Shown piece after piece: positions 35,997-57,260 of a stretch of DNA of 64,000 bases. The translations under genes were made by a program, and so were the position numbers. The notes beneath the pieces were generated by a model. It saw only the letters and a list, made by a program, of their open reading frames with translations, had not been told where the DNA came from and did not search any database. The number at the start of each line of letters is the position of its first letter. Position 1 is the first letter of the stretch. The DNA comes from Gammaproteobacteria bacterium (lineage in GTDB: Bacteria > Pseudomonadota > Gammaproteobacteria > Tethybacterales > CBDBMS01). The DNA is taken from contig CBDBMS010000003.1 of the NCBI GenBank assembly GCA_965207545.1, positions 285,411 to 349,410 of the forward strand. Direction: 5' to 3'.

Positions 35997-36123
35997 CGCC
36001 TGGTCTCGGCCGAAAGTACAGGCTGTCGCCGGATTCCGGTTGGCCGACATATATTTTTGGTTTACAATACAATATCTTGTCAAATTCCATGCAGGAAACT
36101 GAAGAACTTGGCATGGAATTTTA

Positions 36124-42100: not shown

Positions 42101-45100
42101 ATCTTCTGGCCGTTTATTCCGACAGTGCGTCAGCCCTGGTGACATTCGCGGGTCTCGACTACCAGGACGAGCTGGAGGTGAACTTCCATCCGAGAAGGCG
42201 TTCACGTGCCAGCGGGGTGGGGATGCACGTTTCGCATATGGCGCCCAACTTCTCCAGCCAATCCAACTCAATCGACCTGCTTGCGATGAACGACCTGTCC
42301 ACTATCAGCATTGACGAGGACGTTGCGGATCTGGCTGTGGAGGCAGCCGATTTCCTCCATGCGTACCGCGGTTCGGTGGTTGTCCACGAGCAGACTGCAG
42401 CAGGCTTGAACAGCACGGTGACCGTGTCGCCATTCCAACGTCCCCGCAACACCTACCAGGTGACGATCGGCACCGGCCAGCGGGCTGACGACGGCGCCAT
42501 TGCAAGCGGCGGCGGGCTGTTCGGCCTGCCGGTGCCAAGCGACTATGCAGTTACGGTTTCAGTGTCGCTTCGCGCAGATGTTCCCCAGGCGACGGCTCTT
42601 CCTGCATCGGTTTTTCACGAGGAACACTTCACCACGATACCTGCCAACCTGGAAATAGGCCGCAACGCGTTTTTCTCACTGAACAGAAGGCACGGGATCC
42701 AGACGACGCTGAAGTTCGGCTCCGACTTCACAATAGACGGCTATGCGTCGATCTGGCCGCAGAGTTCGCAGGGCGTTCAGAGCGGCTGGGGCTTTTCCGG
42801 CTTTACGGGGGACGGTTCGTATCAACTTTACTTCGAGAGGATGGCCGCGGAATTTGTGGATGGACCGCCTCCGGAAATCTGGCTCATGTTCCCCGAGCCG
42901 TATGCGAGTCTTCCATCGGCCGACGGCTCCATGATTGACGTCTATGCCGGAAGCATGATCAATCCCGTAACCGGTGAGATCATCCAGGCGCGGCCGTTTC
43001 CGGCAAGGGCTACGCTCACCCTGGGAGGCGGCGGAGCATCCGGCGCCATAGGCGGAACGGATGCAGACACGCCACGTCCGGTTTTGGCCACCCCGTTGGA
43101 TCCGCGGGTTCATCTCTACAACAGCTATAGCCTGCCGGTTGCCGCCGGACAGGCGCAATTTGACCCATTGCTTGTCCGGACGGCAGACGAATGGCAGGAC
43201 ACCATGGGCACAGCGGTGACACCGACCGGAGTCACCTTTTCCGGCGCCGCGGTGGATCCGCTCAGCACGCGTCACATACCACTGTGCTTTGACGACCAGA
43301 GCCGTCTGGCCGAGACGGCCGTACTCGGATGCCAGTCAGTGTTCACCGATGTGGACATGAATCTGCCCAACATGTCTACGCGAATCATTGCCGACCTGGG
43401 AGGGGCAGCCACTAGCACCATTGCCTGGGACGTTTCGAAATCGGAAACTTGGCTGGTGGAGAACGCCGCACATCCGTCCGCTTCGCTTGTGCACCGGGAT
43501 GTACATACCTTGGACGAGCTGTTGCTGAAGACCAGAAACAGAACAAACAGGTCACTTCGAAACGTCACGGAGATCCGGATTCCGGGCAATGAGGAACTCG
43601 TTGTCAACGCCTTCACACAGGCGCCAGAAGGGATTTCCGATTTCCGGTTTCCGTCCGGTTCCTGGGCGCGGGTAGGCGTTCCGGAGGGAACAGGACCGCT
43701 CACCAACCTGTCAGTGGGGATTGGCAACTGGGCATTCCCGAGCAGGGTGAGGCCGATACGCGGCACAATTAACCTTGATGTGGAATACGACGTTGCAATT
43801 GACCCGATAACACTGGACTGCGGGGGTTGCACGGTGACGGAGACAGACGTAACAGTGCCTATTAACGGCGTCGACACAACGATGCCGTCCCTGAGCGTCA
43901 CTGCGCCGCTGTCGCCAACGGAAACCTATGAGGCGAGCTATCCCTATCTGCACTTTACGGGCGCAAACGCGCCTCATCCCACGCTTGGACTGGCCTATCA
44001 GACTCCGATGGCCATAGGCACCCCCATGGTGTCCGGAGGCACATTGGTCGCGGCAACAACGTTGTCGCTGACAACATGGGCGGCATCCATTGCATTCGCA
44101 CCGGTCACCGGAGGAACGGGCGAGCTTCCGCTGAGGGTGTCGAACACTGACGACCGCGACAGGTTCCAGATCGACATGAAGCAGAACTTGTGGATAACTC
44201 TGCAGGACGATGTGGATGTGACCTATACATACCGTGGCGTGGTCACCACCCTGTTTCTTCCCGAAGGCACAATTGTGAATCCGATTGTGGGCACTTACCT
44301 GATTCCGCCCGGCGTGGGAGGTCGGCATGAGCGTCTGGAAAGCAGATCAAGCGCGCTTCTGGTGCCGAAAGGGCATCTGTCACTGACGCGGCCGGGACTG
44401 ATTCTTCCGAAAGGGGCGAGATTCCATGCGGCTCAAGGCGCACAGCTTGAAAACGTTCAGGCGGCGGTGTTTCACAGTCCGTATCCGCTGGAGAACGCCA
44501 AGGGTTGCGCAGTGGCTTCCGCGGCGCCTTTCGACCAGGTCCACGAAGGCGTGGTCCAGGGAGGCGCCACCCGGACAAGCGATCCGGTCTCAAGCGGTCA
44601 CATCTGCACGTATCTTGACACGCCGGAGAACACCGACTTCGACAATGTCTTCGACTACTACAGCGGGTCGCAGCGTTCACGTGGCAGAGTGGACCAGCCG
44701 ATTGACACCAATGACAGGGTCTACGCCCTGGGCGGACGTCTTGTCGGCGCGTTCCTGACCACCGTGTCCGCATCCATAGCGCCGCAGGCGATCACGCCGG
44801 GGCTGACGATCATCACTCCGGCAATTTCAGTGGCTGTGACAACGGCCATCCCGGTCACGACGCTGACACCGGCGGTGGTTCCGTTTGACGGCCCGACACC
44901 TCCGCCACTGGTGCCGCCGGTGCCGCCGGTGGGAGATAAGGAGTTTCTGCCTACCGGCGGAACAATTGTGACACACGACCCTCACCCCGCCGACGGTACG
45001 GAGTCCCAATTCAGTGTCCGCCCCGGGGTCATAATATTCAACAACATACACTTTACTGTTCCTCCCGGATCAGATGGTTATTTGCCGATATCGTTGGTCA

Positions 45101-45405
45101 TCGGTGGCACCTCCAGGTTGGTATCAGGAGTCGACTATAGGATAACCTTTAGGGATTTGCCTGCTACTGACTGTCCGGATTTTGACAGCGCGACTGCTCC
45201 GAAGACCTGTTACTTTTTCGTGCCAGACGACGTAAGTTTTTCCAGAACACTCTCCGACGGAAGAATATTTCACACCATCCAATTAGCTGTATCTTTTAGT
45301 GTACCGACGGTTGATCCAGTCGACCAAGACGTGGAGGTCTCGATAGTACTGTTCCCTGGCACTTCCCAGGAGGTCCGTTATACACTACCATTCAGCTTCA
45401 TATGA
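36124..45405 (+). CDS. giant (3093 aa) prepilin-like surface protein with an atypical Glu5-less N-terminus; first gene of the giant-pilin-like operon
   Basis: Single uninterrupted 9.3-kb ORF. Probable real start at the ATG at 36166 (MSRLPHPARRACRSERG|FIHILLVVLVTFGITVYG): a basic leader, Gly-1, Phe+1 and a ~20-residue hydrophobic helix, but no Glu+5. Shares the post-helix LPCPD motif module with the three downstream paralogues. No other recognisable domains. The 3' ~400 nt are AT-richer. Confidence 0.6.
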   Translation: MSMVHDEQSDSVRKMSRLPHPARRACRSERGFIHILLVVLVTFGITVYGFLPSLEEALISKTRLEHERYSDLFRARDALQKYALLGPDDRGSDRSEMPGVGVRRFLLPCPDLPASGEVFSDGISENSCLGPAGSIDVKRDIDLDLNDDLDSIQATSTKGNFIGFLPSRVANPHDANRPPLGILGETNETNSRNKLIYLVSPNLIRRDRPLNPTSLARRSEDWLELDNVIDSTYSTTDGPVQLEKQSNRIALMIMASGTNTPVCSAESPNSAAQRVGSWVDLFYDSSDRTADCTYPPSYRLDGKQHNRSLSRLSYVSAEQLITGGSADFEDIEVSGRPVNDVVAGNLNGVGVADLLKGYYARYGHYPDPAAFDIVTGAGYLAPLPHISDEPHSDSLYRRGGLSLEGISAMHHMNATVVTVGALVSPQAKRIRVNLPEDIAFDNGSGGAGSILQVPPFNTFQLNPGSHLKLASTDGFIPVNLTLPTETAFRTMATLGFKPLDLTAASGLVTTNVRLQMGSTVTMGNDVAAGRAYRSHHETFLPPGMQVLTESQFLTLFVPNTHLNFGGGVTITQTSIVNFPTDEVVAVEGIDVRVPNSAVVEELLAVQSTGGIMVGAAGQGGVARSFEIEGDVIALGVIPHAASPDVTIDGTTYVNSTTEADLPLLAPLRVSNKGFLPVDHIPDLNVVCASVNVAVVSLVSPGGGCGSPYLPNANVVLAPVESGALRLLLPSDMEFLSFPSEEGHGVMVESFPILNAAARDAAFVPNEAPSAFRMPEADYQVLDGSGVSSFPSALLAGIGVNTALERKPVPISLPAGSQLVMPLSSSTSLTLGKGFDLPFAYAVVPAGTRLPGVLPPGSIRPDGRKVPSVPASDLVEDDILLPRGGIVHFNNHLPDGNRLVLASTSLPNYSDLSIRGEMRNLAFEVVESMAVLYSAGSGVPTRLTLESGCFVMPYRTAWYCEEEVYRIQDSGDFLETVGNSLVEVGIQKTDFHHVMEGNTDYRWSYRSGNALGFVTADSVGTAPPAGAPIPSLYLDESTRILAPVGATVRIAVDAAGGEPGLAISTTLAPMLLNRYAEQLRGDSLYVMDLDAADRFSLPATPRSGGNRIDTIPLRNQLITVSQALDFERTRLIFNSANVYSSPIETTADILLTPGVDSIQPVITLNYSLTPYSDMLLTGTVSGAAVSVTVPAGSIVEVESTPSDFTVLSPEVVLTRTEIRRIAPHFGGVNLDPAIMLITVSAAVLRQTAEPFQVVRIKPARGGGSVSRGRSKLYTHYEIMGVLREQVTVLFDSPFELDAYTFEQGGDAVRRLVVNGTLGMDSRIYPEVAIHFWTIDFGVSDNINNQLVAPPNVETATLYRDTFSGDQYPAIPKYAAGTDPGNQFVMPAGTRVLLPGASAYDFGTGEISSDRIVFLPSPVYANPELVSTVTMYEFRSHRLGNNFSSEVVLSTATGETSIDLAPPLRTTLSGLDLFTPSGGALLREIDGGAIDSELAGVMVTTLIEDLPAGSWLDIAGGKVQWRGTDPSLPVESMPSALATVLRDTPMVYAVANECRRTAYPHRRDFGPECALREGEGLKMNVAAGSWLDLPEEKALASRRMVIRATPGSLLSPTISVSVPAYDRDAMRDATSTVYNDVLWAEVDMGAAELVLVTLESMVPTGTTLSFASSGTFPHLLDAVFHAPEQGLEVVYLNDGQSLFSALSMAVDDGYGSLDFVKAQVTTNLTLYPGGQFQLSDGSLSRGHRLVEVPADAAITMGPAVLVTNGGPNAEGLLSNGGWRGDMTLQGFRPHPGSSYNLTVDMMGNPAYGYDYDGLPVVERAPLITSTSQGSQFLDTTGSYMMKPGYAWNGLIASAATISLQDMTQSNFRTETAYQNRGGVFVRRYPDLDSFARMGSHNVIQLDGTTRTATLPLPTVAVTVFASGTRAGLEFDLYEADPILVTFHLSHLSAVTLDASTPLLMDEHGTEDFPVARRIYNPSRLVEPFVEEVVYEIDPDLLAVYSDSASALVTFAGLDYQDELEVNFHPRRRSRASGVGMHVSHMAPNFSSQSNSIDLLAMNDLSTISIDEDVADLAVEAADFLHAYRGSVVVHEQTAAGLNSTVTVSPFQRPRNTYQVTIGTGQRADDGAIASGGGLFGLPVPSDYAVTVSVSLRADVPQATALPASVFHEEHFTTIPANLEIGRNAFFSLNRRHGIQTTLKFGSDFTIDGYASIWPQSSQGVQSGWGFSGFTGDGSYQLYFERMAAEFVDGPPPEIWLMFPEPYASLPSADGSMIDVYAGSMINPVTGEIIQARPFPARATLTLGGGGASGAIGGTDADTPRPVLATPLDPRVHLYNSYSLPVAAGQAQFDPLLVRTADEWQDTMGTAVTPTGVTFSGAAVDPLSTRHIPLCFDDQSRLAETAVLGCQSVFTDVDMNLPNMSTRIIADLGGAATSTIAWDVSKSETWLVENAAHPSASLVHRDVHTLDELLLKTRNRTNRSLRNVTEIRIPGNEELVVNAFTQAPEGISDFRFPSGSWARVGVPEGTGPLTNLSVGIGNWAFPSRVRPIRGTINLDVEYDVAIDPITLDCGGCTVTETDVTVPINGVDTTMPSLSVTAPLSPTETYEASYPYLHFTGANAPHPTLGLAYQTPMAIGTPMVSGGTLVAATTLSLTTWAASIAFAPVTGGTGELPLRVSNTDDRDRFQIDMKQNLWITLQDDVDVTYTYRGVVTTLFLPEGTIVNPIVGTYLIPPGVGGRHERLESRSSALLVPKGHLSLTRPGLILPKGARFHAAQGAQLENVQAAVFHSPYPLENAKGCAVASAAPFDQVHEGVVQGGATRTSDPVSSGHICTYLDTPENTDFDNVFDYYSGSQRSRGRVDQPIDTNDRVYALGGRLVGAFLTTVSASIAPQAITPGLTIITPAISVAVTTAIPVTTLTPAVVPFDGPTPPPLVPPVPPVGDKEFLPTGGTIVTHDPHPADGTESQFSVRPGVIIFNNIHFTVPPGSDGYLPISLVIGGTSRLVSGVDYRITFRDLPATDCPDFDSATAPKTCYFFVPDDVSFSRTLSDGRIFHTIQLAVSFSVPTVDPVDQDVEVSIVLFPGTSQEVRYTLPFSFI

Positions 45406-46982
45406 GTAAGGCTGGCCAGGGAACGTCCATGAACCGGAGCGGGAGCCTCCGTGCCGTTGCGCGGCCGCGTGGCGTCCGAGGCTACTCGATTGTGGAGCTG
45501 ACGATTGTGCTGGTGGCGGGTGCGCTTCTGGCGAGCGGACCCATTCTTCTGATCCAAAACAAGGTTCTTCAGGACAACTATGATTCGGTGGCGCGCCAAT
45601 TGGAAGTGATCAGGTTCAACGTGGCTGACTATGCGGCATCACACCGGACGGTTGAGCGCCACGTCGAGGTGGCCGGCACCGTTCATGCACTGCCGGGAGG
45701 GCGCCCCTATCTGCCGTGTCCGGACGTGACGGGTGACGGCATTGAGGATCGCATGGGCCTGACCATTCCACAGACAGTCACGGTTGCGCCCGGCGCTGCC
45801 ATAGGAAGCGCCGAAGGGCAATGCGTGAGCAGCCTGGGCTGGCTTCCGCATGCGACCCTGGGCAGCCAGCCGGCCGATCCCTGGGGGAACCGCCTTGTCT
45901 ACCGTGTGGACATGGTGATGTCCAATGCGTTGGTTGGCTTCGGTCCCGGACAGCGTGCCGGCTCCTACGATCTGGCGGGCTTGGTGAGAAGCAATGCCTC
46001 GGGCCCCCCCTCGTATCCGCTTCTTTCGGCTCGGGGAGGGACCGCCTTGTATCTGCCTCCGGTAATCTGCGTTGGCGGCTATCCCGCCACCGACAACGAC
46101 CATTCCTGTCCCAATGGCGACTACAAGGGCAGTGTTGTTCCGGCGGGGGCTTCAATAGGTCTAACGCTGGCATCATGGTCGGACATCAGCGGACTGCCGG
46201 AAGTGTACAGCACGGTTGATTCGGGTTCCTATTCGATGTCAGTTCACGACGGTCTTGCATTTGTCATCCTCTCCCCCGGACGGCACTATAGGCCTCCCTT
46301 ATATCAACAAGCCGAGGTTGGAACGGCGGTAGCCGGTGTGTGTACGAGATCAACGAGCGCCCAGGGAGCGGCTGGGATTGAGAACTCAGACACCTACAAC
46401 TATAATCAGCTTCATGGCAGCCTGTGCGGCACGCGTTCGACCGCATCCCCTCTGTTCTACCTGCCCCTGCGGCCTAATGCGTATGCCGCGTATGAATCGG
46501 AGAGTGACGGATCGAGCGCTAGCGACGACCAGGCTGCCTGGATGTCGACAGGGGAGCTGATGGGTCTGCTTGACGACCTGGCAGTCTTTCCCGTCAGCGC
46601 ATTTCCGGTGATTCCGGGATCAGCGTCAGTTCTGACAGGGCAGGGCGTTTCGGTCTCGGCGTCGCCGGCGACTGTCACGTTGCAGCCTGGCGTTGCATCA
46701 GCCGTGACACTTAATGCCAGTGCGGCGGCCACCTTGGCGCTGGATCTCCCGGGCAGTGATTCGGTCTACCACTTTCTCATGGATGTCGCAGGAACAACCG
46801 TCACGGTCTGTACGAGTCTGCTGACCTGTGAGTTGAACCTGTCCAGCGGCGACACCGAACTGAGCATTCTTTCCAGTGGCACAGTCACGGCAGAGATAAC
46901 CCTTTCTGGCGGCGGAAAGCTGGTGCTTGCCCGTCAGCCCCTGCCAACCAGCATAGCCGTTCCATGGGCGCCCTCGCCATGA
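45402..46982 (+). CDS. large (526 aa) type IV prepilin-like protein (class III signal peptide)
   Basis: ATGA overlap with the upstream gene. The N-terminus ...RGVRG|YSIVELTIVLVAGALLASG has Gly-1, Glu+5 and a hydrophobic alpha1 helix. GRPYLPCPDVTGDGIEDR and WGNRLVYRV motifs shared with the paralogues. Confidence 0.65.
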   Translation: MSKAGQGTSMNRSGSLRAVARPRGVRGYSIVELTIVLVAGALLASGPILLIQNKVLQDNYDSVARQLEVIRFNVADYAASHRTVERHVEVAGTVHALPGGRPYLPCPDVTGDGIEDRMGLTIPQTVTVAPGAAIGSAEGQCVSSLGWLPHATLGSQPADPWGNRLVYRVDMVMSNALVGFGPGQRAGSYDLAGLVRSNASGPPSYPLLSARGGTALYLPPVICVGGYPATDNDHSCPNGDYKGSVVPAGASIGLTLASWSDISGLPEVYSTVDSGSYSMSVHDGLAFVILSPGRHYRPPLYQQAEVGTAVAGVCTRSTSAQGAAGIENSDTYNYNQLHGSLCGTRSTASPLFYLPLRPNAYAAYESESDGSSASDDQAAWMSTGELMGLLDDLAVFPVSAFPVIPGSASVLTGQGVSVSASPATVTLQPGVASAVTLNASAAATLALDLPGSDSVYHFLMDVAGTTVTVCTSLLTCELNLSSGDTELSILSSGTVTAEITLSGGGKLVLARQPLPTSIAVPWAPSP

Positions 46983-49900
46983 GAGATTGCGTCAGCAGAT
47001 TCAGCCGGTCTTTCCGAACCGGACGAAAAGGTGCGGACTGTCCCGGGTTCCGTACACGCGCGGGCGGCTTCACGATCGTGGAGATGGCGATCGTGCTTGT
47101 GGTGCTGGGCCTGCTTCTGAGTTCGGCCTTGACTCCTCTGCGGCACCGCTGGGAGAACGGGAAGTACGAAGATGAACGGGAGAGGATCGAGCAGCGTCGC
47201 CAGGCGTTGGTTGCGTATGCTACGCAGAACCGGACGGAAGAGCGTACCGTTGTGCTTGAAGACCTGGGCTGGAGCTACACGATCCCGGCGGGACGTCCCT
47301 ATCTGCCGTGTCCGGACATTGACGGCGATGGTCTTGAAGACCGGCTGGCGACGAGTGGACTTCCTGATTCTGGGACTGCAATCACTCTTGAAAGCGCATC
47401 AAATTTCCGGGGGATTGCGGCGGCCGGGGGATGCCAGCACTACCAAGGACTGTTCCCGTGGGGTTCGGTTGGCACTGAAGCGAATGACACTTGGGGGCGT
47501 CTCTACATCTACCGTGTACATCCGTCGTTCAGCAACAATGTGTCGGGTTTCGATCACCTGACAAGAGCGGACGTCTACGACGAGACGTCAGGCCTGGTCG
47601 TCAGCACGGTGACGGTTAACTATGCCGGCAAGGATCTGGTTCCGACCTCGGCCATCTCCAACGACAGCATCAGGTTTCTCTACAACACCGAACTGAGCGA
47701 CCAGGCCACGGTGACAGTGACAACCTATCAGAGTCTCTACGAATCGACAGCGACAACCACGACAGCGACGATTAACGGCGTAACGGCAGTGCTGGTTCAT
47801 GACGAGCGTCCATTTGGCGTCTGTGCGCCGGGGGTGAGGGCGGCGGCCGGAGCGACAGTTACAATGAGTGCGCACTGTCCCGATGCCGATGCGGTGGCCG
47901 GCGTGGCGCTTACGATGAGCACTGCGAGCAACGTGGTCGAGTTCGACCCTCCACGCACAGGGATCAGCGGGCCGCTCCTCGTTCGCGCCTACATGGGGAG
48001 CGACAACGGAGCGGATGCCGACGACATCCCCAGGAGTTTCAAGGAGGGGGTCGTGTTCGGAGTGGTGTCGACCGGACAGAACGGCTACGGCGGCTTTGTC
48101 CGGAATGCAGCCGGAGGCCTGGCGTGTGGCAGTCATCCTGTTCCCGACGAGCCGTCGCCGGAGGTGATGCATTTGAGTCTGCTAAAAAACGTGAGCGGTC
48201 ACTGCAGCACATTGCCTACCAGCTACGCCCCCCATTATGAAGGAAACCTGTACTATCTGCCGCGCACCGAGCCGACAACTTTCGAAGCGGACTCGGAAAC
48301 AAGCTCACCTGTTGGCTTTGATGACGTGATTGGCTGGATGGGGCCAGATGAGTTCGTCGGAAAGCTGGCTCGGCAGGATGTGTTTCCAGTTGAAATGTAT
48401 CCGTACATAGGACTTCCGCTCGATTCGACAACCGTTGCAATGTCGGTGGCGCCGGCACTGGGGGTTGACTACACCGGAGCTCCGGGTTCCTCTGTGACGA
48501 TTGACCCTGCGCGTGATGCATCGGGGAGTGCCCGCTTTGTGGGCAGGACGGATCCGCCGCTGCCGCTGTCGGATGGCACGACGATTTCCCTGACGGTACA
48601 GGTGGACCAGGAAGACGGAAACACGACCCAGGTTCCATTCCGGTTCGACACCGAGGATGTGACCCTGACGCTGGAAGCAACCGGCGCCCCGTGCGTGGAC
48701 GACATGGACACCCCCTTGCCTGAGATAACGGGTGGTGACAGCTGTCTGATCTCGGTAACAGGCCGCGTGCCGGCGGATATTCTGCTGAGCGTGACCGGGG
48801 TGACGGTGGATGACTTTGTCAATGCAGCGGCAACCATCCAGATGGTGCCCTTTATCGGCACAAGCCCGACGGTGTCGCTAGCTCATCCTTCCGTCGCGAT
48901 CCTGACGCCGAACAGCGCGGCCGGCAGCATTGTGTTTGCCCCCTCGGACGTGTTCTACACACCGGCGGTTGCGCCAGGTTTGGAGATGCTGGCGACATTG
49001 CAGGCTCTGTACATACCTGAGGCCGACGGAGTGCCGCAGACGCTGACACTGGAGGCGGCGTCCATTCCGGCAGGCGTGACACTGACGCTGGGAGGAGTGC
49101 CGTCATGCATCTCCGTCGGCGTGAACATGTGCGAGTATCGGTTCGGCGGCATGACGACAGAATTTGATGCGACACTTTCTGCCCAGGATCTAACCACGGC
49201 CGCGTCCTTCTCGGTTACAGTGGCTGGCGGGGGTGCGGTTCTGACGATCCGCACCCGCACAGCGCCATTCGTCGATGAATTCAGGGTTCTTGGCGGATCG
49301 GCGGCGACAACCTATTTTCGCACAGGAGCCCCCGTGCTGAAGCGTTTTGCACTCAAGGGGGGCGGTCTTCAGCCTCTGGAGCGGCTTACGGTGACGGTCT
49401 CGATCAGCAGCAACAGGATGACTTCGTCGGAGAAGTTCATCAATACGGACATCAGTGTCGCAACGCCGGAGGCGGAGTGCTACGACAATGTGATGGTGCC
49501 GCCTGTACAGGCAACGATGGTTGGACACGGCGACCACTGCGTATTCGAACTGACTGGAAGCAACGAGGCGCGGTTTCTTCTGCGGCTGAACGAACTGCGG
49601 CCTGAGCTGATCACCCTGACGACCACGCCAACGGGCTTGGAGCTGGCCCTTCGGGAAACGACGTCCACTGCGCCCGGAGTGTATTTCGATCCGAGGGTGC
49701 TTCCGTACATCACCGCGACGCCCACGCCTGGAGCAACAAGGCTGGCCGGAGCCACACTTCATGTGTCCACAGGAACCGGAGCCGCCCCGTCAAGTGACTT
49801 TGTGTTCACGCTGACCTCGGCACCGCCGAGTCCGATCGTGCTGGCTGCCGCATTTGCCGCCGGTGTGACGCCGTCAACCTGCAGTTTTTCCGGTGGGACG

Positions 49901-52900
49901 ACACTGTGCGCGCTGACTGTGGCGTCGACTTCGTTACCGAGCGGAACCTATGAGACGGATGTTACGGTTGATCTGACAAGCGTTCAGGAGTTGGTGTCAG
50001 CGGGTACGCCAACGCTTACGATTCTCTGGGAAGCCCATCCGGTGCTTCTGACGCGTCCTATTCCCAACACCAACCCCTATCTCTCTTTCCTGCCGGACAC
50101 AGCATCGTTTCCCGCGGCTGTGAATCCGGAGAACCGACCCTTCGGTCTTGTGACCATGGACTATGGAAACTTGGCAGGCAACCGGGACATTACGCTAAGT
50201 GCAACCGGTTTGCCGGCGCTGGCGGCGCTGACGCTAGAGGAGGGAGTACTGACGCCTTTGACTTGCCGGATCACTGCCGGGACGCCTTGCACTGTCAGTG
50301 TCGCGAACGATCTTGGCGCTGTCGTGTTTATGGGCTCGATCGAGAACGCCCATGTGCTTTCCGCCGGAGACACAGTGACAGTTCAATGGAACGGCAATGA
50401 CGTTCTGGAAGTGGAGGCTCTCCCGGCTCAGCCGCTCAATGTTGTGGGAAGTCCCGCCACGGTTCGCTATGCGCCAACACCGCCTGGCCGCGGAATTCTG
50501 CAGGCGTTCGAGAGAGTGACCGTCGATTACTCCCCTGTCGACCCTGCGCTGACGTCCATCACGTTGGCAATCACCGCAAGCGGTTTGCAGACCGGCAACT
50601 CGCTTTCCGGCGATCCGATGCTCCCGGGTCAGAATGTCCAGTTCACCCCGGCAGCCAGTGTGCAGCCTGTCACATTGACGACCACCACTCCCGGCGATTT
50701 TACGTTCAGCCTAAACCTGACGCTTGCACCGAACCGTTTGGAGACAGGTTCGACAATGGCGCTGTCGGCGGAAGGCCTCCCGTTTCTCTCGATTCAACCG
50801 GCGACGCTAGGTTTCATGCCGGCGTCAGTAGGCTACGTCAACGCACCTGGAGGAATGAGGTCTCTTTTCGATGTCAACCTGATCTACAGCGGCAACGTCA
50901 GCGCAGCCGTGGCCAATGTGTTCCTGGAGCATGAGGGCTTTGATTTTCCTCAGGCTTCAGACCGGTTCCTGCTCTCGCTGAACACGACTCCTCCGGAGAC
51001 GTGCGACCTGCACAGGAATGCACCTGCGACATGTGACTGGACTTTCCCGCTGACAGGCGGCATGGCCAACATTCCAGTCGACGTCAGCCAATTCAGCGAC
51101 ATTGGGGGCGGTACCGCGTATCTGAAGTACCGCGGGGTAACCGTGCTTACCTTTATGCCTGCCATGCCAACGCTCAGTATTTCCCCAAACATGGCAACAT
51201 TTGATTCACTATTGGATGGTGCTCAACCAGCCATAGCAAGATTTTCCTATAGCCAGGGCCATCCAGGCGCGTTAGCTACGGACGTCACATTGACAGTAAG
51301 CGGGATAAGAGCCGGGAATTCTCATGTTCTACAGGCTACCGGCATCAACTGTTTTTTGGGCGCTGACGGTGAATGCGCATTCAGTTTTACGACTGGGTCC
51401 GACGGGACATACAATCTTGATCCCTTCGCCGTGACGCAATTTGATCGTGACTCTCAAGGTCCCCACCCGATTACAGTCAGCTGGAACGGCCAGGAGATTT
51501 TTGTGTGGACACCCATCCCGCCGTCGATCTCTGCCAATCCCGACAGATTTCAATTTAGGGCGGGTACGTCAGGGAACAACAGCGATCGTGTTAGCCCTCC
51601 TGTCACAGTCACGTATTCTTCACGCGATGTTAACTTATCAGAGGCCGTTCTCACCGTCACTGCATCCGGCCTTGCGAGCGGAGCCACCATCGCGATGGAC
51701 TTGGACATCATGCCGGCACAGTCATGCAGTTTCACTCGCGTTGCGGCCGAATGTGTTGTCACCTTGGAGAGTCCGTCGTCGACTGGGGAGTTCGAGCAGG
51801 AGTTGAGGACCACACTGGAGAACCCTGTTGCCCAGGGAGACGCCAATATGACGCTCTCAACGATAGACACCGACTTCTACATATTGGCACCCGCCTCTGT
51901 GACGCTCGGCTTTGCCCCCAACAGTGGACTGTTTGATCAACTGGGTATTGGGAGGCGCGACCACAGACCGGCATTTTCCTATAGCCAGGGTCTTCCAGGT
52001 GCGTCAAATACGACCGTCACATTGACAGTGAGCGGGCTGATGGGCACAGGTAATGGCTTAAATATGGACGTTGGTACCAATAGTTGCTCCCTGGGCCAGC
52101 TGATTGGCACTTTTGAGTGTGAACTCACTTTCACAACTCAAGCTGACGGGACGTTCAGTGCGAGCAGCCTGCTTAGGCTTCTCAGAGTTCAAGATCAAGA
52201 TGGCAACCCGGTCACAATCAGCTGGGACGGCCAGGAGGTTTTCGTGTTCGAACCGACACCGCCGTCGATCTCTGCCAGTCCCGACAGCTCTGCGTTTACG
52301 CCGACAGCCACTCCTCAGGTTTTCCGTTCCGTGCTCTCTTACGCTTCGCGTGACACCGGCTTGTCAAGAGCCACGATTACTGTCACTGCATCCGGCTTGC
52401 AGACTAACGTCACGGTTAGGTCGCGCTTCGACACCTCTCCAAGGCGAACATGCGACTTCACCACTGTTGCATCCCAATGCGTTCTCACATTGAGCGGACC
52501 GGATAGCTCCGGAACCTTCGATCATGAGATGACGGTCACATTGAGAAATCCTGATGACCAAGGCCAGTCCAATGTGACGCTCTCATGGGAAGACAATGAC
52601 TTCTACACCCTTTCGGTTCCAATGTCGTTGCTTAGCTTTACTCCCCGCGGGTTGTTGTTCCCCTTCAACGTAGAAGCTGTCAGAATTGCTGGTTTCTACA
52701 ACCAGAGACCTCCTGCATTTAGCTACTACACATCCAGTGGTGCAGGAACTTATGATGTCACGCTGGCCGAAAGCGGATTACAAACCGGCAACCAAATTTT
52801 CTTAAATTTGGACAGGTTCGGCGTTGATGAGTGCTCTCTAGTCGAAGATGGTACCTGCTCGTTCGCCGTTACCGTTGGTGCCAACAATTTTGCTAGCTTC

Positions 52901-53809
52901 GACTCAATAAGCTTTAGGACAGCCAGCTTTGCCGATCAGACCAATACGGTCACTATAAGTTGGGACAGCACTCCCGTCTTGATAGTTACACCGCCATCGC
53001 CAGGTTCAAATGCCGACTTCGGTTTTGATGCGACTGCTGCGTCTTTCAGGCAGGGCGCCAATCTTCTCGATGTGGCTGACAGGATCATCACGGTTGGCTT
53101 TGATTACGATTATGACAACCCAGCCCAGCCAGGCGGCTTTATGGGTCGAATACCCGCTCCCTTACTCACACTCACTGTCACCGGTTTGCAGACTCAAGTG
53201 AGCTTGGACACCAGCATACGCGGCAGCCAGTGCTCGTGGACTACCAACGGCTTGGGATGTGTTTATAACATGAGTGACTCGGGAACTGAGGGCATGTTCA
53301 GCGACACGTTGCTTATGACCTTGAAAATGGCGGGGAGACAGGGGACAAGTGCGATCACGCTTCAATGGACTCATCCCGTCTCGGGAACGAGCGCCGACGT
53401 GCTTACACTGACTCCGGCTGCACCGGCGGAGAGCTTGCGGTTCGATCCGATGACGGTTACATACACGCCTTCCTCTGGAACAACACCGGCATCTCTAGGT
53501 GATGTGACCCTCAACTACAACTCCGCCTCCGATTCGGCGGTCAGACAGTTTGTCACAATCACCTGGAACGCCTCTAATATGTCTTCGATTGACGAGATCG
53601 AGTTTCGTAACAGGTACATAGGCGTTAACCAGACGGCAACGCTCAGTCCCACGGAGACGACCGCTACGGTCGGTGTTGAAGGCAACTACGGCATTCTCTC
53701 ATCTGCCGTTACCATTTACGCAACGGATCCAAGTTCCCTTGGATCCGAGACGGTTGAAATCGACTGGGAGGGCGATACCGTTCTTGAGATTGAGGCGGCA
53801 ACACCATGA
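46964..53809 (+). CDS. giant (2281 aa) type IV prepilin-like protein with a long repeat-containing C-terminal extension
   Basis: Likely start ATG at 46979 (ATGA overlap with the upstream stop). ...RTRAGG|FTIVEMAIVLVVLGLLLSS has Gly-1, Phe+1 and Glu+5. GRPYLPCPDIDGDGLEDR and WGRLYIYRV motifs. The C-terminal third contains ~245-aa degenerate internal repeats and is AT-richer. Confidence 0.65.
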   Translation: MGALAMRDCVSRFSRSFRTGRKGADCPGFRTRAGGFTIVEMAIVLVVLGLLLSSALTPLRHRWENGKYEDERERIEQRRQALVAYATQNRTEERTVVLEDLGWSYTIPAGRPYLPCPDIDGDGLEDRLATSGLPDSGTAITLESASNFRGIAAAGGCQHYQGLFPWGSVGTEANDTWGRLYIYRVHPSFSNNVSGFDHLTRADVYDETSGLVVSTVTVNYAGKDLVPTSAISNDSIRFLYNTELSDQATVTVTTYQSLYESTATTTTATINGVTAVLVHDERPFGVCAPGVRAAAGATVTMSAHCPDADAVAGVALTMSTASNVVEFDPPRTGISGPLLVRAYMGSDNGADADDIPRSFKEGVVFGVVSTGQNGYGGFVRNAAGGLACGSHPVPDEPSPEVMHLSLLKNVSGHCSTLPTSYAPHYEGNLYYLPRTEPTTFEADSETSSPVGFDDVIGWMGPDEFVGKLARQDVFPVEMYPYIGLPLDSTTVAMSVAPALGVDYTGAPGSSVTIDPARDASGSARFVGRTDPPLPLSDGTTISLTVQVDQEDGNTTQVPFRFDTEDVTLTLEATGAPCVDDMDTPLPEITGGDSCLISVTGRVPADILLSVTGVTVDDFVNAAATIQMVPFIGTSPTVSLAHPSVAILTPNSAAGSIVFAPSDVFYTPAVAPGLEMLATLQALYIPEADGVPQTLTLEAASIPAGVTLTLGGVPSCISVGVNMCEYRFGGMTTEFDATLSAQDLTTAASFSVTVAGGGAVLTIRTRTAPFVDEFRVLGGSAATTYFRTGAPVLKRFALKGGGLQPLERLTVTVSISSNRMTSSEKFINTDISVATPEAECYDNVMVPPVQATMVGHGDHCVFELTGSNEARFLLRLNELRPELITLTTTPTGLELALRETTSTAPGVYFDPRVLPYITATPTPGATRLAGATLHVSTGTGAAPSSDFVFTLTSAPPSPIVLAAAFAAGVTPSTCSFSGGTTLCALTVASTSLPSGTYETDVTVDLTSVQELVSAGTPTLTILWEAHPVLLTRPIPNTNPYLSFLPDTASFPAAVNPENRPFGLVTMDYGNLAGNRDITLSATGLPALAALTLEEGVLTPLTCRITAGTPCTVSVANDLGAVVFMGSIENAHVLSAGDTVTVQWNGNDVLEVEALPAQPLNVVGSPATVRYAPTPPGRGILQAFERVTVDYSPVDPALTSITLAITASGLQTGNSLSGDPMLPGQNVQFTPAASVQPVTLTTTTPGDFTFSLNLTLAPNRLETGSTMALSAEGLPFLSIQPATLGFMPASVGYVNAPGGMRSLFDVNLIYSGNVSAAVANVFLEHEGFDFPQASDRFLLSLNTTPPETCDLHRNAPATCDWTFPLTGGMANIPVDVSQFSDIGGGTAYLKYRGVTVLTFMPAMPTLSISPNMATFDSLLDGAQPAIARFSYSQGHPGALATDVTLTVSGIRAGNSHVLQATGINCFLGADGECAFSFTTGSDGTYNLDPFAVTQFDRDSQGPHPITVSWNGQEIFVWTPIPPSISANPDRFQFRAGTSGNNSDRVSPPVTVTYSSRDVNLSEAVLTVTASGLASGATIAMDLDIMPAQSCSFTRVAAECVVTLESPSSTGEFEQELRTTLENPVAQGDANMTLSTIDTDFYILAPASVTLGFAPNSGLFDQLGIGRRDHRPAFSYSQGLPGASNTTVTLTVSGLMGTGNGLNMDVGTNSCSLGQLIGTFECELTFTTQADGTFSASSLLRLLRVQDQDGNPVTISWDGQEVFVFEPTPPSISASPDSSAFTPTATPQVFRSVLSYASRDTGLSRATITVTASGLQTNVTVRSRFDTSPRRTCDFTTVASQCVLTLSGPDSSGTFDHEMTVTLRNPDDQGQSNVTLSWEDNDFYTLSVPMSLLSFTPRGLLFPFNVEAVRIAGFYNQRPPAFSYYTSSGAGTYDVTLAESGLQTGNQIFLNLDRFGVDECSLVEDGTCSFAVTVGANNFASFDSISFRTASFADQTNTVTISWDSTPVLIVTPPSPGSNADFGFDATAASFRQGANLLDVADRIITVGFDYDYDNPAQPGGFMGRIPAPLLTLTVTGLQTQVSLDTSIRGSQCSWTTNGLGCVYNMSDSGTEGMFSDTLLMTLKMAGRQGTSAITLQWTHPVSGTSADVLTLTPAAPAESLRFDPMTVTYTPSSGTTPASLGDVTLNYNSASDSAVRQFVTITWNASNMSSIDEIEFRNRYIGVNQTATLSPTETTATVGVEGNYGILSSAVTIYATDPSSLGSETVEIDWEGDTVLEIEAATP

Positions 53810-55248
53810 TGAAGCGGGCCACATCACCGGCAACAGGTTCAGGTGCGGGCAGTCGCAGCGCCTTTGGTTTCTTCCGGATCGGTCTTGGTCCGTCGAGTTC
53901 CCATACTGTGGGTCCGATGCGTGCGGCCCGTGACTTCTGTGTTGATCTGCGTGACAAGGGCGTTCTGGAGAGCGTATCGCGCGTCCAGGCGTTTCTGCAT
54001 GGTTCGCTGGCGGCGACCGGAGTGGGACATGGCACCGATCGCGCCGTAGTTCTCGGCCTCTCAGGCGAAGTCCCCGAGGAAGTTGATCCGGTTGCGGCGG
54101 TGGAACTCGTGGAATCGGTTCGTGCACAAGGGAGAATCAGGCTTCTTGGTGTCCATGAGGTCGAGTTTGACATGTCGAAAGACATTGTCATGATCCGCCG
54201 TCCGTTGCCAACCCATCCGAACGGAATGGTTTTCGAGGCGGCGGATGCCTCTGACAGGAAATTGGGCAAGGCTGAACGCTATTCGGTTGGCGGCGGGTTT
54301 GTTACTGGTCCTGAAGATTCCGCCGGAGAGGAACAGGAAAACGTTGAATATCCATATCCTTTTGGCACCGGTGTGGAGCTTCTTGCAATGTGTGCACGGA
54401 AGGGCCTATCGGTGTCGGAGCTGATGATGGCGAATGAATGTGCACAAGGACTCGATGAGAGCGAAGTCCGTGCAGGACTGCTTGCCGTCTGGAATGCGAT
54501 GGTTGCTTGCATAGATGCGGGTTGTTCGAACAGTGGGATCCTTCCGGGTGGTCTTAGGGTGCGTCGCCGCGCACCGGATCTGTATGCGCAGCTGAAGACG
54601 GAGCACGGCTCGAACACCGACGACCTGCATATCTTGGACTGGGTTAACCTCTATGCGTTGGCGGTGAACGAAGAGAATGCGGCTGGCGGCCGCGTGGTGA
54701 CCGCACCGACAAATGGTGCGGCTGGGGTGGTTCCAGCGGTGTTGCGCTACTTTTCGGACTTTCGCGTTGCTAGGGCAGGACGTTGCATGGAGGACGAAAT
54801 AGTGTCGTTTCTGCTTGCTGCCGCGGCGGTGTGCGTCCTGTTCAAGCGCAATGCATCAATATCAGGAGCCGAGGTCGGATGCCAGGGCGAGATTGGTTCG
54901 GCATGTGCAATGGCTGCTGCGGGTTTGACGGAGGTTTCCGGCGGCACGCCGGAACAGGTGGAGAATGCCGCTGAAATAGGGCTTGAGCACAATCTTGGCC
55001 TAACTTGTGATCCGGTTGGAGGGCTTGTACAGATCCCGTGCATAGAGCGTAATGCTCAGGCGGCCGTCAAGGCGATCAATGCTTCCCGCATAGCGTTGCG
55101 TGGCGATGGCACACATCAGGTCTCGCTGGACCAGGTGATCAAGACAATGTGGAACACCGGACAGGACATGAAGCTTAAGTACAAGGAGACCGCTCGCGGA
55201 GGACTGGCTGCTACGGTTAAAATACCAGTGAATGTGGTTGAATGTTAG
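53806..55248 (+). CDS. sdaA: L-serine dehydratase (iron-sulfur, single-chain)
   Basis: [19 protein letters not shown]...[33 protein letters not shown]...[26 protein letters not shown]...[22 protein letters not shown] is collinear with SdaA. Start and stop both overlap the flanking prepilin-like genes. Confidence 0.88.
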
Positions 55249-56780
55249 GCATGGACAGCAAAGGGAAGAATAGGCTTGGTTGCGCGGGTGTGTCTCAGCG
55301 GGGCTACTCGCTGGTCGAGTTAGCCATTGTTCTGGCAGCTTTGGGGCTGTTTCTGGGTGGTGCGACGGTGCCCCTGTTTCAGCTCTACCGTAATTCCGCC
55401 ATTGACAAGACGGAGCAGCGCTTGGCGGATGTACATGCGGCGATAGCGGGTTATGCGGTCCGCCATAGGACTCCCGGACTTAGATATGTCGTAGAGACGC
55501 AGATTACCGATGCTTCGGGCAATCGGAGGTCGGATACGCGTTCCTACTGGATTCCCGCCAATCGACCCTATCTTCCGTGCCCGGACTACAACAGCGATGG
55601 CATTGAGAACAGAGTTGATCCGATGGCGGTTATCATGAGTCAGTTGATCAATGGGCATGTTGTTGATGTCAAGCCGGTCACTCTTAATCCGGCTGCGACG
55701 TATCCCTTGCTTCAGGAGATGCAGAATGAGAAGGATTTCACCACTGCAAATGCAGGAGTGAGAATGCGGTCGCTGGCTGAATATGGCGTGTGTGCGCACC
55801 ATCCGGGACATACCAGTGATTCGTCAAACTCGCACAATGCCAATGACCGGGGAGTGTTGCCTTGGCGTACACTCGGGGTTCTGCCGACGGATCGTTGGGG
55901 TGGAAGATTCACTTATCGTGCCGATACCGTTTACGCCTCGGCGCTTACTGGCTTTGGTCACGACACTTCGATCGACAGCTATGACCCTAGGGTGCCAATG
56001 CACTATCTCCAGAACGGCGGAAATCTGCGTCTCATGTCGCTGAGAAGGCCGTCAGTGTCGAATGGAGCTGCCGTCAACGATACCTTGACTCCCAAGTCCA
56101 TGGTGCCTTCAATGGTATGTTCGGAACCAGACTATAATGATGGCGGTGGAGAACGTCTTCACGTGTGCGATCCGGTTCGTCCTAATTCTACCGGTCTGAT
56201 TACCAGAATTAACTCGTCGATCAGTAGCTCCAACACTCAGCCTGAGCATGAGCTCCTTGTGGGAAGCGTTGCCACTGCCCAAGTTGGGCATACGCAGGAA
56301 AACATACGTCCGATACCGTTTCCTCTGGATCTTCTGACCGCGAGCAACCTTCCAGGTCACACATCGGCTGTACAGGTCGGAGGTGTTGTTGAAGGTCTCC
56401 CATACGTGGTTCTTTCCCATGGTCCGAACCAGCATTTTGCTGTTAAGCACCGCGAGGCGGCAGATGCTTTTGAAACCTTGTCCTCTTCGACCAGTCAGTG
56501 GAATCCTTGTCTTGTGGGTAGAGATTCCGTCAGAAGCAACGGCAGACTTAATACAGACGCCTCGATATTCGAGGCTCATAACAGTCCTTGTCCTGTGATA
56601 TACGCATCTGGCGCCAATAGGCAATATCCAACCTATCTGTTTGTCAAAAAGCTTGGCCCAAGTTGGGATGATGATTTCGATGACATCATTGAGTGGCGAA
56701 CCAGGAGCCAGCTTTTGGCCGATCTGTCTGAAGCTGGTGTCCTACCTGCTGCGGGTCTGCCATTGCTTTTAGTGCGTTAG
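55242..56780 (+). CDS. large (512 aa) type IV prepilin-like protein (class III signal peptide)
   Basis: ...GVSQRG|YSLVELAIVLAALGLFLGG has Gly-1 and Glu+5. NRPYLPCPDYNSDGIENR and WGGRFTYRA motifs. The 3' half is AT-richer. An alternative ATG at 55251 exists. Confidence 0.65.
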   Translation: MLGMDSKGKNRLGCAGVSQRGYSLVELAIVLAALGLFLGGATVPLFQLYRNSAIDKTEQRLADVHAAIAGYAVRHRTPGLRYVVETQITDASGNRRSDTRSYWIPANRPYLPCPDYNSDGIENRVDPMAVIMSQLINGHVVDVKPVTLNPAATYPLLQEMQNEKDFTTANAGVRMRSLAEYGVCAHHPGHTSDSSNSHNANDRGVLPWRTLGVLPTDRWGGRFTYRADTVYASALTGFGHDTSIDSYDPRVPMHYLQNGGNLRLMSLRRPSVSNGAAVNDTLTPKSMVPSMVCSEPDYNDGGGERLHVCDPVRPNSTGLITRINSSISSSNTQPEHELLVGSVATAQVGHTQENIRPIPFPLDLLTASNLPGHTSAVQVGGVVEGLPYVVLSHGPNQHFAVKHREAADAFETLSSSTSQWNPCLVGRDSVRSNGRLNTDASIFEAHNSPCPVIYASGANRQYPTYLFVKKLGPSWDDDFDDIIEWRTRSQLLADLSEAGVLPAAGLPLLLVR

Positions 56781-56979
56781 TTTCTAGCCTCTAGGCTTCT
56801 GATGATTGCCAAGTCTTCTTGGAAGCGCGGCTGACCATCGGATAAGGGGTTGTGCTTGATCAAAGTGCCGAGACTAGCTCCGGATTTCAAGGTTTCGCCG
56901 AGATGATGGATTCTTTTCCCACCTGTGCCTGTTGCTTTTGTTTGCGTGATGTTTACAGGTAGAATACCCAGTTCATTCA

Positions 56980-57005
56980 CCCCCCCCCCCCCCCCCCCCC
57001 CCCCC
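56980..57005 (+). repeat. homopolymeric poly(C) tract, 26 nt
   Basis: Uninterrupted C26 in the AT-rich intergenic region. It lies ~15 nt downstream of a TAGAAT hexamer and ~255 nt upstream of the first in-frame ATG of the tandem-repeat adhesin gene. Confidence 0.85.
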
Positions 57006-57260
57006 TTATTTTTGGTCTGACCGCTCAAAGACAAGTTGGAGGGCATCCAGCAGCAGCATAGTCAGTATTAGGGGTTGCCCTATTTATGCGTTGTATGTCT
57101 CACTGGTTAATTGTGTTGTCAAGGCATCCAGTAATTCCAGTGAGATTGTTGAACCACAATGTTACTCCATGCAATTACTGCAAAAAAGAATTGGCATTAC
57201 TCACAAATTTGTGTGGAGCATTGATCCTTGCAAAAAGTGAATTTCCAATTTCATTAAACC

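Follow-up and report, generated by a model that had tools for sequence, protein, structure and literature searches.

A serine dehydratase gene embedded among very large pseudopilin-like genes in a Tethybacterales genome

In Escherichia coli, sdaB adjoins the serine transporter gene sdaC and tdcG lies in the tdc catabolic operon, whereas the sdaA gene described here has pilin-like genes as its neighbours. Its product shares the beta plus alpha architecture of E. coli SdaA, SdaB and TdcG (TIGR00720) and of LpLSD (4RQO). In the latter the catalytic residue is His61, three cysteines hold the [4Fe-4S] cluster and the C-terminal Cys458 is the fourth ligand (PMC12647591). The catalytic histidine, the three cysteines of the cluster and that at the C-terminus are common to LpLSD and the SdaA studied here. 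Compared with type 2 Fe-S L-serine dehydratases, this SdaA has a 17-residue N-terminal extension and carries Trp449 where close homologs typically have an arginine.

The neighbouring genes recall the minor-pilin and pseudopilin sets (GspH-I-J-K of the type II secretion system, T2SS; FimU-PilV-PilW-PilX with PilY1), the likeness consisting of four genes with a prepilin leader on the same strand. GspK and PilX-class subunits lack Glu5, and so does the largest member of the set, g3093. Profile matches to T2SS GspG and GspH are weak, and the family motifs D.WG..Y.Y, S.G.(D/N)G and DD(I/V)..W are taken by us to resemble the GspG core. In contrast to the minor-pilin sets, the proteins are far larger (363-3329 aa), belong to no Pfam family, gave no significant structural match (with a low-confidence model) and share the family-specific invariant motif RP.LPCPD..DG.E.R; moreover, their genes enclose a metabolic one. 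Genes for an assembly ATPase, platform, secretin or prepilin peptidase were not found within the 64-kb window, by which the whole stretch of DNA analysed is meant.

The canonical Tethybacterales cluster (Ca. Zeuxoniibacter abyssi CP136751, here L006; OZ244916, L002/L014) encodes the same family in the order giant-p1-p2-p3, where p1 to p3 are pilin-like genes 1 to 3. Such clusters lack sdaA, and most have the endonuclease III gene (nth) after p3. In the window, by contrast, nth is on the other strand at a distance of 15 kb, p2 is extended by 1800 aa and sdaA stands between p2 and p3. No paper was found that links serine dehydratase to minor pilins or pseudopilins in symbionts; neither is mentioned in the comparative study of Tethybacterales with its supplements (PMC8546597), nor are serine dehydratase and pilins in the main text of the Zeuxoniibacter paper. 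The features of the locus are as follows.

36040..36073, + strand: candidate operon promoter, two overlapping sigma-70-like matches ~50-80 nt upstream of g3093 (consensus scan).
36124..45405, + strand: g3093, giant pilin-like protein of 3093 aa, first gene of the cluster (ORF list, N-terminal translation).
45402..46982, + strand: p526, pseudopilin-like gene 1, with leader plus GYSIVELTIVL and with RPYLPCPD..GDGIEDR; it overlaps the g3093 stop by 4 nt.
46964..53809, + strand: g2281, pseudopilin-like gene 2 (2281 aa), a family core of ~500 aa (GFTIVEMAIVL, RPYLPCPD) plus a C-terminal extension of ~1800 aa.
53806..53809, + strand: ATGA junction (CC-ATGA-TG), the sdaA start codon overlapping the g2281 stop TGA (read from the sequence).
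53806..55248, + strand: sdaA, 480 aa, ATG start (ORF list and raw sequence agree).
55242..55248, + strand: ATGTTAG junction (GA-ATG-T-TAG), the 7-nt overlap of sdaA and p512 (read from the sequence).
55242..56780, + strand: p512, pseudopilin-like gene 3 (512 aa), last gene of the operon, with a leader followed by GYSLVELAIVL.
56781..57260, no strand: spacer of 480 nt after p512, the putative end of the operon.

The five same-strand genes g3093, p526, g2281, sdaA and p512 overlap by 4, 19, 4 and 7 nt, with sdaA as the fourth. That sdaA is wedged between two prepilin-like genes and overlaps both was borne out by the ORF list and the raw sequence. A GAGG is present 10 nt upstream of the sdaA ATG, and the start codon of p512 is built from the last two sense codons of sdaA, GAA-TGT (Glu-Cys; GAATGTTAG). 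The sdaA/p3 junction of genome L001 has the same 7-nt design (GAATGCTGA). An alternative in-frame ATG at 55251 would leave a gap of 2 nt between sdaA and p512 instead of an overlap; because the L001 ortholog of p512 has only the overlapping ATG, the start at 55242 is favoured. Since four-base ATGA overlaps are common in bacteria, the overlap upstream of sdaA is by itself unremarkable; the same gene order recurring in other genomes is more than chance.

In the inter-gene scan no terminator-like sites were found between the genes of the operon. No credible promoter of sdaA was found either: the only nearby promoter-like match lies inside sdaA, and match counts were no higher than in shuffled sequence. 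Each of the two sigma-70-like matches ahead of g3093 agrees with 9 of 12 consensus positions, the regional match count again not being above that of shuffled sequence. Scans for Rfam elements and tRNAs revealed none in the operon. As sdaA overlaps both neighbours, its co-transcription and translational coupling with the pilin-like genes is the natural reading, and the scans for terminators and promoters agree with it. We infer it from the arrangement of the genes, where the first-pass annotation had called it almost certain. The spacer that follows p512 contains a run of 26 C (56980-57005), and the next gene, which starts at 57261, encodes a Calx-beta repeat giant.

The annotation of sdaA as full length and intact was confirmed by TIGR00720, Pfam and the alignment with 4RQO, the key residues being kept. 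PF03315 (SDH_beta) covers residues 18-167 (1.5e-53) and PF03313 (SDH_alpha) residues 199-468 (1.1e-87) in Pfam, while NCBIfam TIGR00720 (sda_mono) scored 651.7 bits against an equivalog cut-off of 345.1, over model positions 2-450 of 450. Among PDB entries, 4RQO, LpLSD of Legionella pneumophila, was the closest in sequence (E 1.7e-145). In this alignment His75, Cys359, Cys401 and Cys412 fall on the corresponding LpLSD residues, and Cys480, which ends the C-terminus ...VVEC, is aligned with the C-terminal cysteine of 4RQO. In an alignment of the window SdaA with 150 family representatives, 124-146 of the 151 sequences agree in the catalytic and cluster columns. Of the 184 positions with a conservation of 97% or more among 229 close homologs, SdaA retains 176. 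The product is thus predicted to be a full-length, single-chain (type 2) [4Fe-4S] L-serine ammonia-lyase, by its sequence a normal and catalytically complete enzyme that would convert serine to pyruvate and ammonium. The 17-residue N-terminal extension, similar ones being present in L001 and P0003, is imposed by the overlapping start. As it shows no hydrophobic stretch by eye, SdaA is presumed to be cytoplasmic.

Residue 449 is a tryptophan in all five sdaA products of the cluster lineage, whereas 226 of 228 close homologs have an arginine; among 233 close homologs, tryptophan occurs in this column in those five only. In four of the five, position +4 is in addition a glutamine, predicted to face the same side of the helix. 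When 1.84 billion representatives were searched, 18 of 150 distant sdaA sequences, the window not counted, carried tryptophan as well, so that the exchange was ruled out as a sign of new function, tryptophan being common in more distant subfamilies. Trp449 may serve as a weak phylogenetic marker.

The neighbours of sdaA had been called prepilin-like, and this description holds. The score of p512 with TIGR02532 is 19.0 (cut-off 16.3), while p512 (20.1 bits) and g2281 (18.0 bits) just miss the gathering score of 21.2 for Pfam N_methyl (PF07963). This model gave no match at all with p526 and g3093, and g3093 had no Pfam match of any kind. A distant, 235-aa homolog from Azospira passes the N_methyl threshold at 24.9 bits. 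A class III leader that ends in glycine is followed by a hydrophobic helix with Glu at +5 in p512 (QRG/YSLVELAIVL), p526 (RG/YSIVEL) and g2281 (GG/FTIVEM). Leader and Glu5 helix are conserved in an alignment of 23 family members, in which Glu26, RP.LPCPD, SHG.N and DD..W are invariant. The N-terminus of g3093 has a pilin-type hydrophobic helix that lacks Glu5 (RGFIHILLVVLV), together with the family motif FLLPCPD; by tblastn, L001-L023 have a conserved counterpart of its C-terminal region upstream of the pilin-like genes. The weak GspG/GspH profile matches are those of g2281, and p526 is a paralog of p512 (E 4e-21). In the AF2 model of p512, an N-terminal helix (24-74) is followed by strands at low confidence (mean pLDDT 60.7), and this model had no match in the PDB at E <= 0.001 by Foldseek. 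The pilin assignment rests for this reason on the sequence motifs.

The genes around sdaA fall into a rare, Pfam-less pseudopilin-like family. It has 27 matches in 5.8 billion proteins, and the matches in named genomes are from metagenome-assembled genomes of Tethybacterales sponge symbionts. A metagenome scan with the pilin-like alignment returned distant short homologs only and no further giant clusters. The idea that serine-rich products need a serine deaminase was rejected, for the pilin-like proteins are only moderately rich in Ser/Thr and a deaminase competes for serine rather than supplying it.

The usual cluster consists of one giant gene and three pilin-like genes. Of the 15 complete clusters, three (window, L001 and L016) have sdaA between pilin-like genes 2 and 3, and the partial contig L124 shows the order p2-sdaA-p3 as well. 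The embedding that the first-pass annotation had proposed to follow in related genomes is found again, which speaks in part for a real association, but it is not general: in 11 of the 15 complete clusters p1-p2-p3 are contiguous without sdaA, and in the remaining one (L004) a secreted ankyrin-repeat gene occupies the p2/p3 slot. Even among relatives of the window lineage the partners are separated. In L082/L009, p3 is alone and adjoins pyrG, and in L083 a sister of the L001 sdaA is followed by a Fic gene and not by p3. In part this is the outcome that the first-pass annotation had named as speaking against its own reading. Genome L001 has the order of the window throughout: giant, p1 (37% identity), p2 (36%, residues 36-484 of g2281 against a 703-aa ortholog), sdaA (66%) and p3 (42%). 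The sdaA of L016 is 55% identical to that of the window and has junctions with 3-nt and 1-nt gaps; in L124 the gaps are 1 nt. Two further sdaA homologs, P0221 and P0229 (contigs of ~1.6-1.7 Mb), are found in unrelated contexts, by a ribosomal-protein operon and by NHL/HpcH genes. Shared by the window with at least three other divergent genomes, the placement of sdaA between p2 and p3 is old, and it is lineage-restricted because most clusters are devoid of sdaA.

In neighbour-joining (NJ) trees the embedded sdaAs form two clades, one of the window, L001 and P0003 (100% bootstrap) and one of L016 and L124 (99%). Their union was obtained in only 11-14% of replicates, the two clades differ in junction design, and the branches of the embedded sdaAs are long. 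The tryptophan shared at position 449 weakly favours one ancestral capture over convergence.

With a probability of roughly 0.55, our preferred explanation is that the operon captured a housekeeping sdaA long ago and that the gene, dependent on the operon for its expression, has been locked in place ever since, while its product does the usual metabolic job only. As no separate sdaA promoter or terminator was detected, the gene is read as being transcribed from the operon promoter ahead of g3093. Ribosomes terminating on g2281 would then translate sdaA by way of the ATGA overlap and would pass on from sdaA to p512, for which the terminal Glu-Cys codons of sdaA supply the ATG. SdaA would be made together with the surface apparatus and would be neither a structural nor a modifying component of it. 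For the apparatus sdaA appears to be dispensable, since the pilin-like genes are contiguous in 11 of 15 clusters, p3 is alone in L082/L009 and the sdaA of L083 is without p3. The p2/p3 slot seems to accept other cargo too, as the ankyrin gene of L004 suggests. Against a frozen accident it can be argued that the same gene in the same slot, in two clades and with two junction designs, would fit selection for linkage.

Such selection is the essence of adaptive co-regulation of sdaA with the surface apparatus, which is possible but on balance rather unlikely. It supposes that serine catabolism or detoxification is useful when the apparatus is made, for instance in contact with amino-acid-supplying host material, so that the linkage was selected while the enzyme stayed normal. 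For Tethybacterales, amino-acid import has been predicted and exchange with the host suggested as possible (PMC8546597), which would agree with this idea, as would the tight packing in nearly all junctions and the occurrence of the same slot in four divergent genomes; the two clades that the NJ trees do not join and their two junction designs are compatible with two captures. However, linkage is broken in close relatives and 11 of 15 clusters manage without sdaA, an unrelated gene in the same slot suggests a permissive rather than an sdaA-specific site, Trp449 in all five cluster-lineage sdaAs weakly points to a single ancestral capture, and no serine transporter or other serine-pathway gene was found in the window operon. 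Because of the two sdaA clades and the two start/stop junction designs, it could be proposed in addition that sdaA was captured at least twice independently into the p2/p3 junction, that a surface organelle for host contact and serine catabolism are tied together by selection and that sdaA is a functional accessory instead of a passenger. This proposal is regarded as doubtful.

It was also considered whether sdaA and the 3' part of the cluster arrived recently as horizontally acquired foreign DNA. A zone of ~6 kb at ~51-57 kb (C-terminal part of g2281, sdaA and p512) has a GC3 of 0.54-0.59 as against 0.68-0.83 in core genes, and in L001 a HigB/HigA pair and a transposase gene come after the cluster. 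The high, core-like GC content first ascribed to sdaA could not be upheld: its total GC is 0.575 (core genes 0.595-0.634), and its GC3 of 0.580 matches that of the flanks (0.593 in the C-terminal part of g2281, 0.536 in p512). In three genomes the GC3 of sdaA equals that of the flanking pilin-like genes (window 0.58, L001 0.94, L016 0.61); its composition being that of its flanks, sdaA would be a long-standing resident, and the full match in L001 and L016 is difficult to reconcile with a recent arrival. Furthermore, L001, from which the window is deeply diverged (66% identity for sdaA, 36-42% for the pilin-like genes), has all five genes in the same order, and the cluster has housekeeping neighbours: leuS, dapD and genes for a metal ABC transporter and a CN hydrolase in the window; leuA, a ctpA-like gene and an aldehyde dehydrogenase gene in L016. 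With orthologs at 36-42% identity, the cluster is old and lineage-specific rather than the acquired island that had been suggested, and recent hitch-hiking is judged very improbable. A moonlighting or modification-related role, in which SdaA would act on the pilin-like proteins (e.g. on seryl residues) or be a physical partner of the apparatus, can practically be set aside: the conserved position inside the cluster, the long branches, the arginine to tryptophan exchange with Gln at +4 in four of five and the moderate Ser/Thr content of the pilin-like proteins are circumstantial and yielded no evidence for it, while SdaA is full length with a score far above the equivalog cut-off, keeps the catalytic histidine, all cluster cysteines and the self-inhibiting C-terminal cysteine, is presumably cytoplasmic given an extension without hydrophobic stretch by eye, and shares Trp449 with distant subfamilies.

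Capture followed by locking would imply that an operon for a surface structure can hold a housekeeping metabolic gene frozen within it across deep divergence, and no functional link should be read from such co-location without further tests. If the linkage was selected, through independent captures or coupled expression, amino-acid catabolism would be tied to a host-interaction organelle. The enzyme itself appears to be ordinary. The very large pseudopilin-like proteins encoded by its host operon make up a family that is undescribed and without a Pfam entry, and to understand how these reduced-genome bacteria make contact with their host, this family would be a better target than sdaA. For the last of its genes in the window, p512, the public annotation (P0121, 452 aa) starts 60 codons too late.

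The L-serine dehydratase gene sdaA is one of five genes (36124-56780) that all lie on the same strand and of which successive members overlap by 4, 19, 4 and 7 nt:

36040-36073, upstream of g3093: two overlapping promoter-like matches (candidate; consensus scan)
36124-45405, plus strand: giant gene g3093
45402-46982, plus strand: p526, pilin-like gene 1 (p1)
46964-53809, plus strand: g2281, pilin-like gene 2 (p2)
53806-55248, plus strand: sdaA
55242-56780, plus strand: p512, pilin-like gene 3 (p3)
57261-64000, plus strand: Calx-beta giant ORF of >2247 aa, continuing past the window edge (Pfam Calx-beta, 1.2e-25)

According to the ORF list and the sequence, sdaA comprises 480 codons from the ATG at 53806 to the TAG at 55246-55248. 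The TGA (53807-53809) of the upstream 2281-codon ORF closes across its start in an ATGA overlap, and the ATG (55242) of the 512-codon ORF p512 lies within its final two sense codons (GAA-TGT-TAG), giving an overlap of 7 nt. A second in-frame ATG at 55251 is an alternative start of p512 and would leave a gap of 2 nt after sdaA. The coordinates and the overlaps on both sides that the first-pass annotation had given were thus borne out. Consensus scans revealed no terminator-like sites among the junctions of the five genes, and scans for Rfam families and tRNAs detected none within the operon. The sole promoter-like match near sdaA (54167-54194) is situated inside the gene, and match counts were not above those of shuffled sequence. 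As p512 is followed by a spacer of 480 nt, which contains 26 consecutive C residues, and then by the separate Calx-beta giant gene, the operon most likely ends at 56780.

The product of sdaA contains the Pfam domains SDH_beta and SDH_alpha and matched the NCBIfam equivalog TIGR00720 over the entire model (651.7 bits; cut-off 345.1). Its residues 13-470 align (E 1.7e-145) to the solved L-serine dehydratase of Legionella pneumophila (LpLSD, PDB 4RQO). In this alignment His75, Cys359, Cys401 and Cys412 correspond to the catalytic His and the cluster cysteines, and the last residue, Cys480, to the C-terminal Cys of LpLSD, which is the fourth iron ligand (residue roles according to PMC12647591). 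Of 184 columns conserved at >=97% in 229 close homologs, 176 are retained. The gene had been called full-length with intact catalytic and Fe-S regions, which the full TIGR00720 match and the 4RQO residues show to be correct. The ATG-ATG at 53806 is the only possible start and gives a 17-residue N-terminal extension, in which no hydrophobic stretch was found; similar extensions occur in the sdaA products of the homologous locus L001 and of L083 (P0003). No second sdaA was present inside the 64-kb window. The best-supported reading of the sequence is that the product would be a typical serine deaminase, a further case of a known enzyme type.

The synteny of the sdaA slot was compared in 15 complete clusters, the window included. 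The standard layout is one giant gene followed by three contiguous pilin-like genes, with endonuclease III downstream in most members of one group. In three clusters (window, L001 and L016) sdaA lies between p2 and p3. The sdaA of L001 (a 326-kb ENA contig) is 66% identical to that of the window and its pilin-like genes 36-42%, and the sdaA of L016 (chromosome OZ242208, 1.99 Mb) is 55% identical. A fourth embedded sdaA was found outside this set on the short JGI contig L124, where a complete 430-aa pilin-like gene ends 1 nt upstream of it and, 1 nt downstream, another ORF opens whose leader resembles that of p2. Eleven of the 15 clusters have no insert. In the cluster L004 the exact sdaA slot, between copies 2 and 3, is occupied by a gene for a secreted 605-aa ankyrin-repeat protein, which suggests that the p2/p3 junction is a permissive site. 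The three pilin-like genes of L004 (5150-11425) are near-identical recent duplicates, and no giant gene was found upstream of them. In the sub-lineage of the window itself the linkage of sdaA and p3 is not fixed: in L082, L009 and L005 the p3 ortholog is isolated between pyrG and an MFS gene, and P0003, which is closest to the sdaA of L001, is followed by an opposite-strand Fic-domain gene. For the partnership noted in the first-pass annotation, synteny had been proposed as a check. The partnership held in that the slot recurs, but not in that most clusters do without sdaA; the association is conserved yet facultative.

The core genes of the window have a GC3 of 0.68-0.83. Along the operon GC3 is 0.685 in g3093, 0.66 in p526, 0.67 declining to 0.59 along g2281, 0.58 in sdaA and 0.54 in p512. 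The earlier statement that sdaA has a core-like GC content was therefore not upheld, since its GC3 groups with that of its flanks. Its slightly raised total GC (0.575 versus 0.53-0.54 in the flanks) is due to the first codon positions (0.667), reflecting amino-acid content. In L001 (GC3 0.94) and L016 (0.61) the composition of sdaA is likewise indistinguishable from that of the adjoining pilin-like genes. This agreement in all three loci argues for a long residence of sdaA beside its present neighbours and disfavours a recent arrival. A zone of about 6 kb (51000-57300; last third of g2281, sdaA, p512 and spacer) is lower in GC and GC3 than the core genes and than the 5' part of the operon; relaxation of codon bias or an ancient recombination event could be the cause.

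The sequences are compatible with a single capture of sdaA into the p2/p3 slot as well as with several independent ones. In neighbour-joining trees with three distance corrections and bootstrap, in which all branches are long, embedded sdaA genes formed two groups, window + L001 + P0003 (100%) and L016 + L124 (99%), the union of which was recovered in 6-14% of the replicates. The distance between the sdaA genes of the window and L016 (0.65) exceeds the median distance of each to unrelated bacterial sdaA genes (0.50-0.53). In trees of the pilin-like genes the window was joined to L001 (100%) and to L016 in 0-7%. The junctions also differ in design: in the window and L001 the ATG of p3 is made from the Glu-Cys codons of sdaA (GAATGYTRA), whereas in L016 and L124 sdaA terminates with GAT-TGC-TGA and the ATG follows 1 nt later. 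Against separate captures stands residue 449 of the window protein, which is Trp in all five sequences, the usual residue in close homologs being Arg (226 of 228). Of the control pairs, only 2% had at least one state of this rarity in common with the window clade. However, Trp is common at this column in distant sdaA subfamilies, 18 of 150 representatives besides the window carrying it, and homoplasy is therefore plausible. As a sign of new function Trp449 was dismissed on the same ground.

In the best-supported account, a serine deaminase gene of ordinary function would have joined the operon long ago and lost its own expression signals, or never had any, so that its transcription would now depend on the operon and its translation on coupling. 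Such dependence alone could account for its retention where the cluster is intact as well as for its separation where the cluster is fragmented. That selection keeps serine catabolism co-regulated with the surface apparatus is less likely, and would gain weight if the captures proved independent. For SdaA as a structural or modifying component of the apparatus no support was obtained.

More notable than sdaA is the uncharacterised giant pseudopilin-like family around it, for which no Pfam model exists. The N-termini of p526, g2281 and p512 consist of a basic leader, Gly, (F/Y)(S/T)(L/I)VE and a hydrophobic helix. The TIGR02532 prepilin-domain cut-off is met by p512, and the Pfam N_methyl matches of p512 and g2281 are slightly under threshold. 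The three share a core of ~400-500 aa with the invariant motifs RP.LPCPD..DG.E.R, LPW.TL...D.WG..Y, SHG.N and DD..W. In g3093 the LPCPD motif recurs, and the N-terminal helix is pilin-like but lacks Glu5; tip-type minor pilins likewise lack Glu5. The public annotation of p512 (P0121, 452 aa) begins at Leu61 and omits 55242-55421. On sequence grounds this start is wrong, because it drops two elements conserved family-wide, the leader of the prepilin and the helix with Glu5. An AF2 model of p512 showed the expected long N-terminal helix at low confidence, and with this model no solved structural relative was found. Within the 64-kb window, genes for pilus or type II secretion machinery were not detected; its other genes have housekeeping roles (pst operon, efp, gshA, PEP synthase, leuS, dapD, trkAH, nth and a metal ABC transporter).

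The family is rare (27 matches in 5.8 billion proteins), and these matches contain no Pfam domains besides N_methyl. Carriers were located by scanning one genome per species. Large members occur in MAGs of Ca. Zeuxoniibacter abyssi, Ca. Tethybacter castellensis, Ca. Persebacter sydneyensis, Ca. Amphirhobacter and AqS2, which belong to the Tethybacterales, symbionts of sponges whose genomes are reduced (PMC8546597, PMC11525543), and on Gammaproteobacteria chromosomes of 1.7-2.05 Mb. Judging by this distribution, the bacterium from which the window comes is presumably a symbiont of the same type. Distant short homologs (235-290 aa) were found in Thiobacillus, Hydrogenophilales and Azospira. The 235-aa homolog of Azospira sp. 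I13 (L051, 4659-10678) passes Pfam N_methyl and is preceded by a 922-aa protein without Pfam match and two small ORFs. Given this arrangement, large proteins and pilin-like genes may already have been paired before the symbiont lineage arose.

The 26-C run in the spacer downstream of p512 (56980-57005) may be an artefact of assembly or a tract for phase variation by slipped-strand mispairing. The N-terminus of the Calx-beta giant beyond it resembles a signal peptide. In this ORF a 339-bp (113-aa) unit is repeated in tandem 18.6 times with 87% matches, and its GC (0.73) and GC3 (0.86) are far above those of the remainder of the window.
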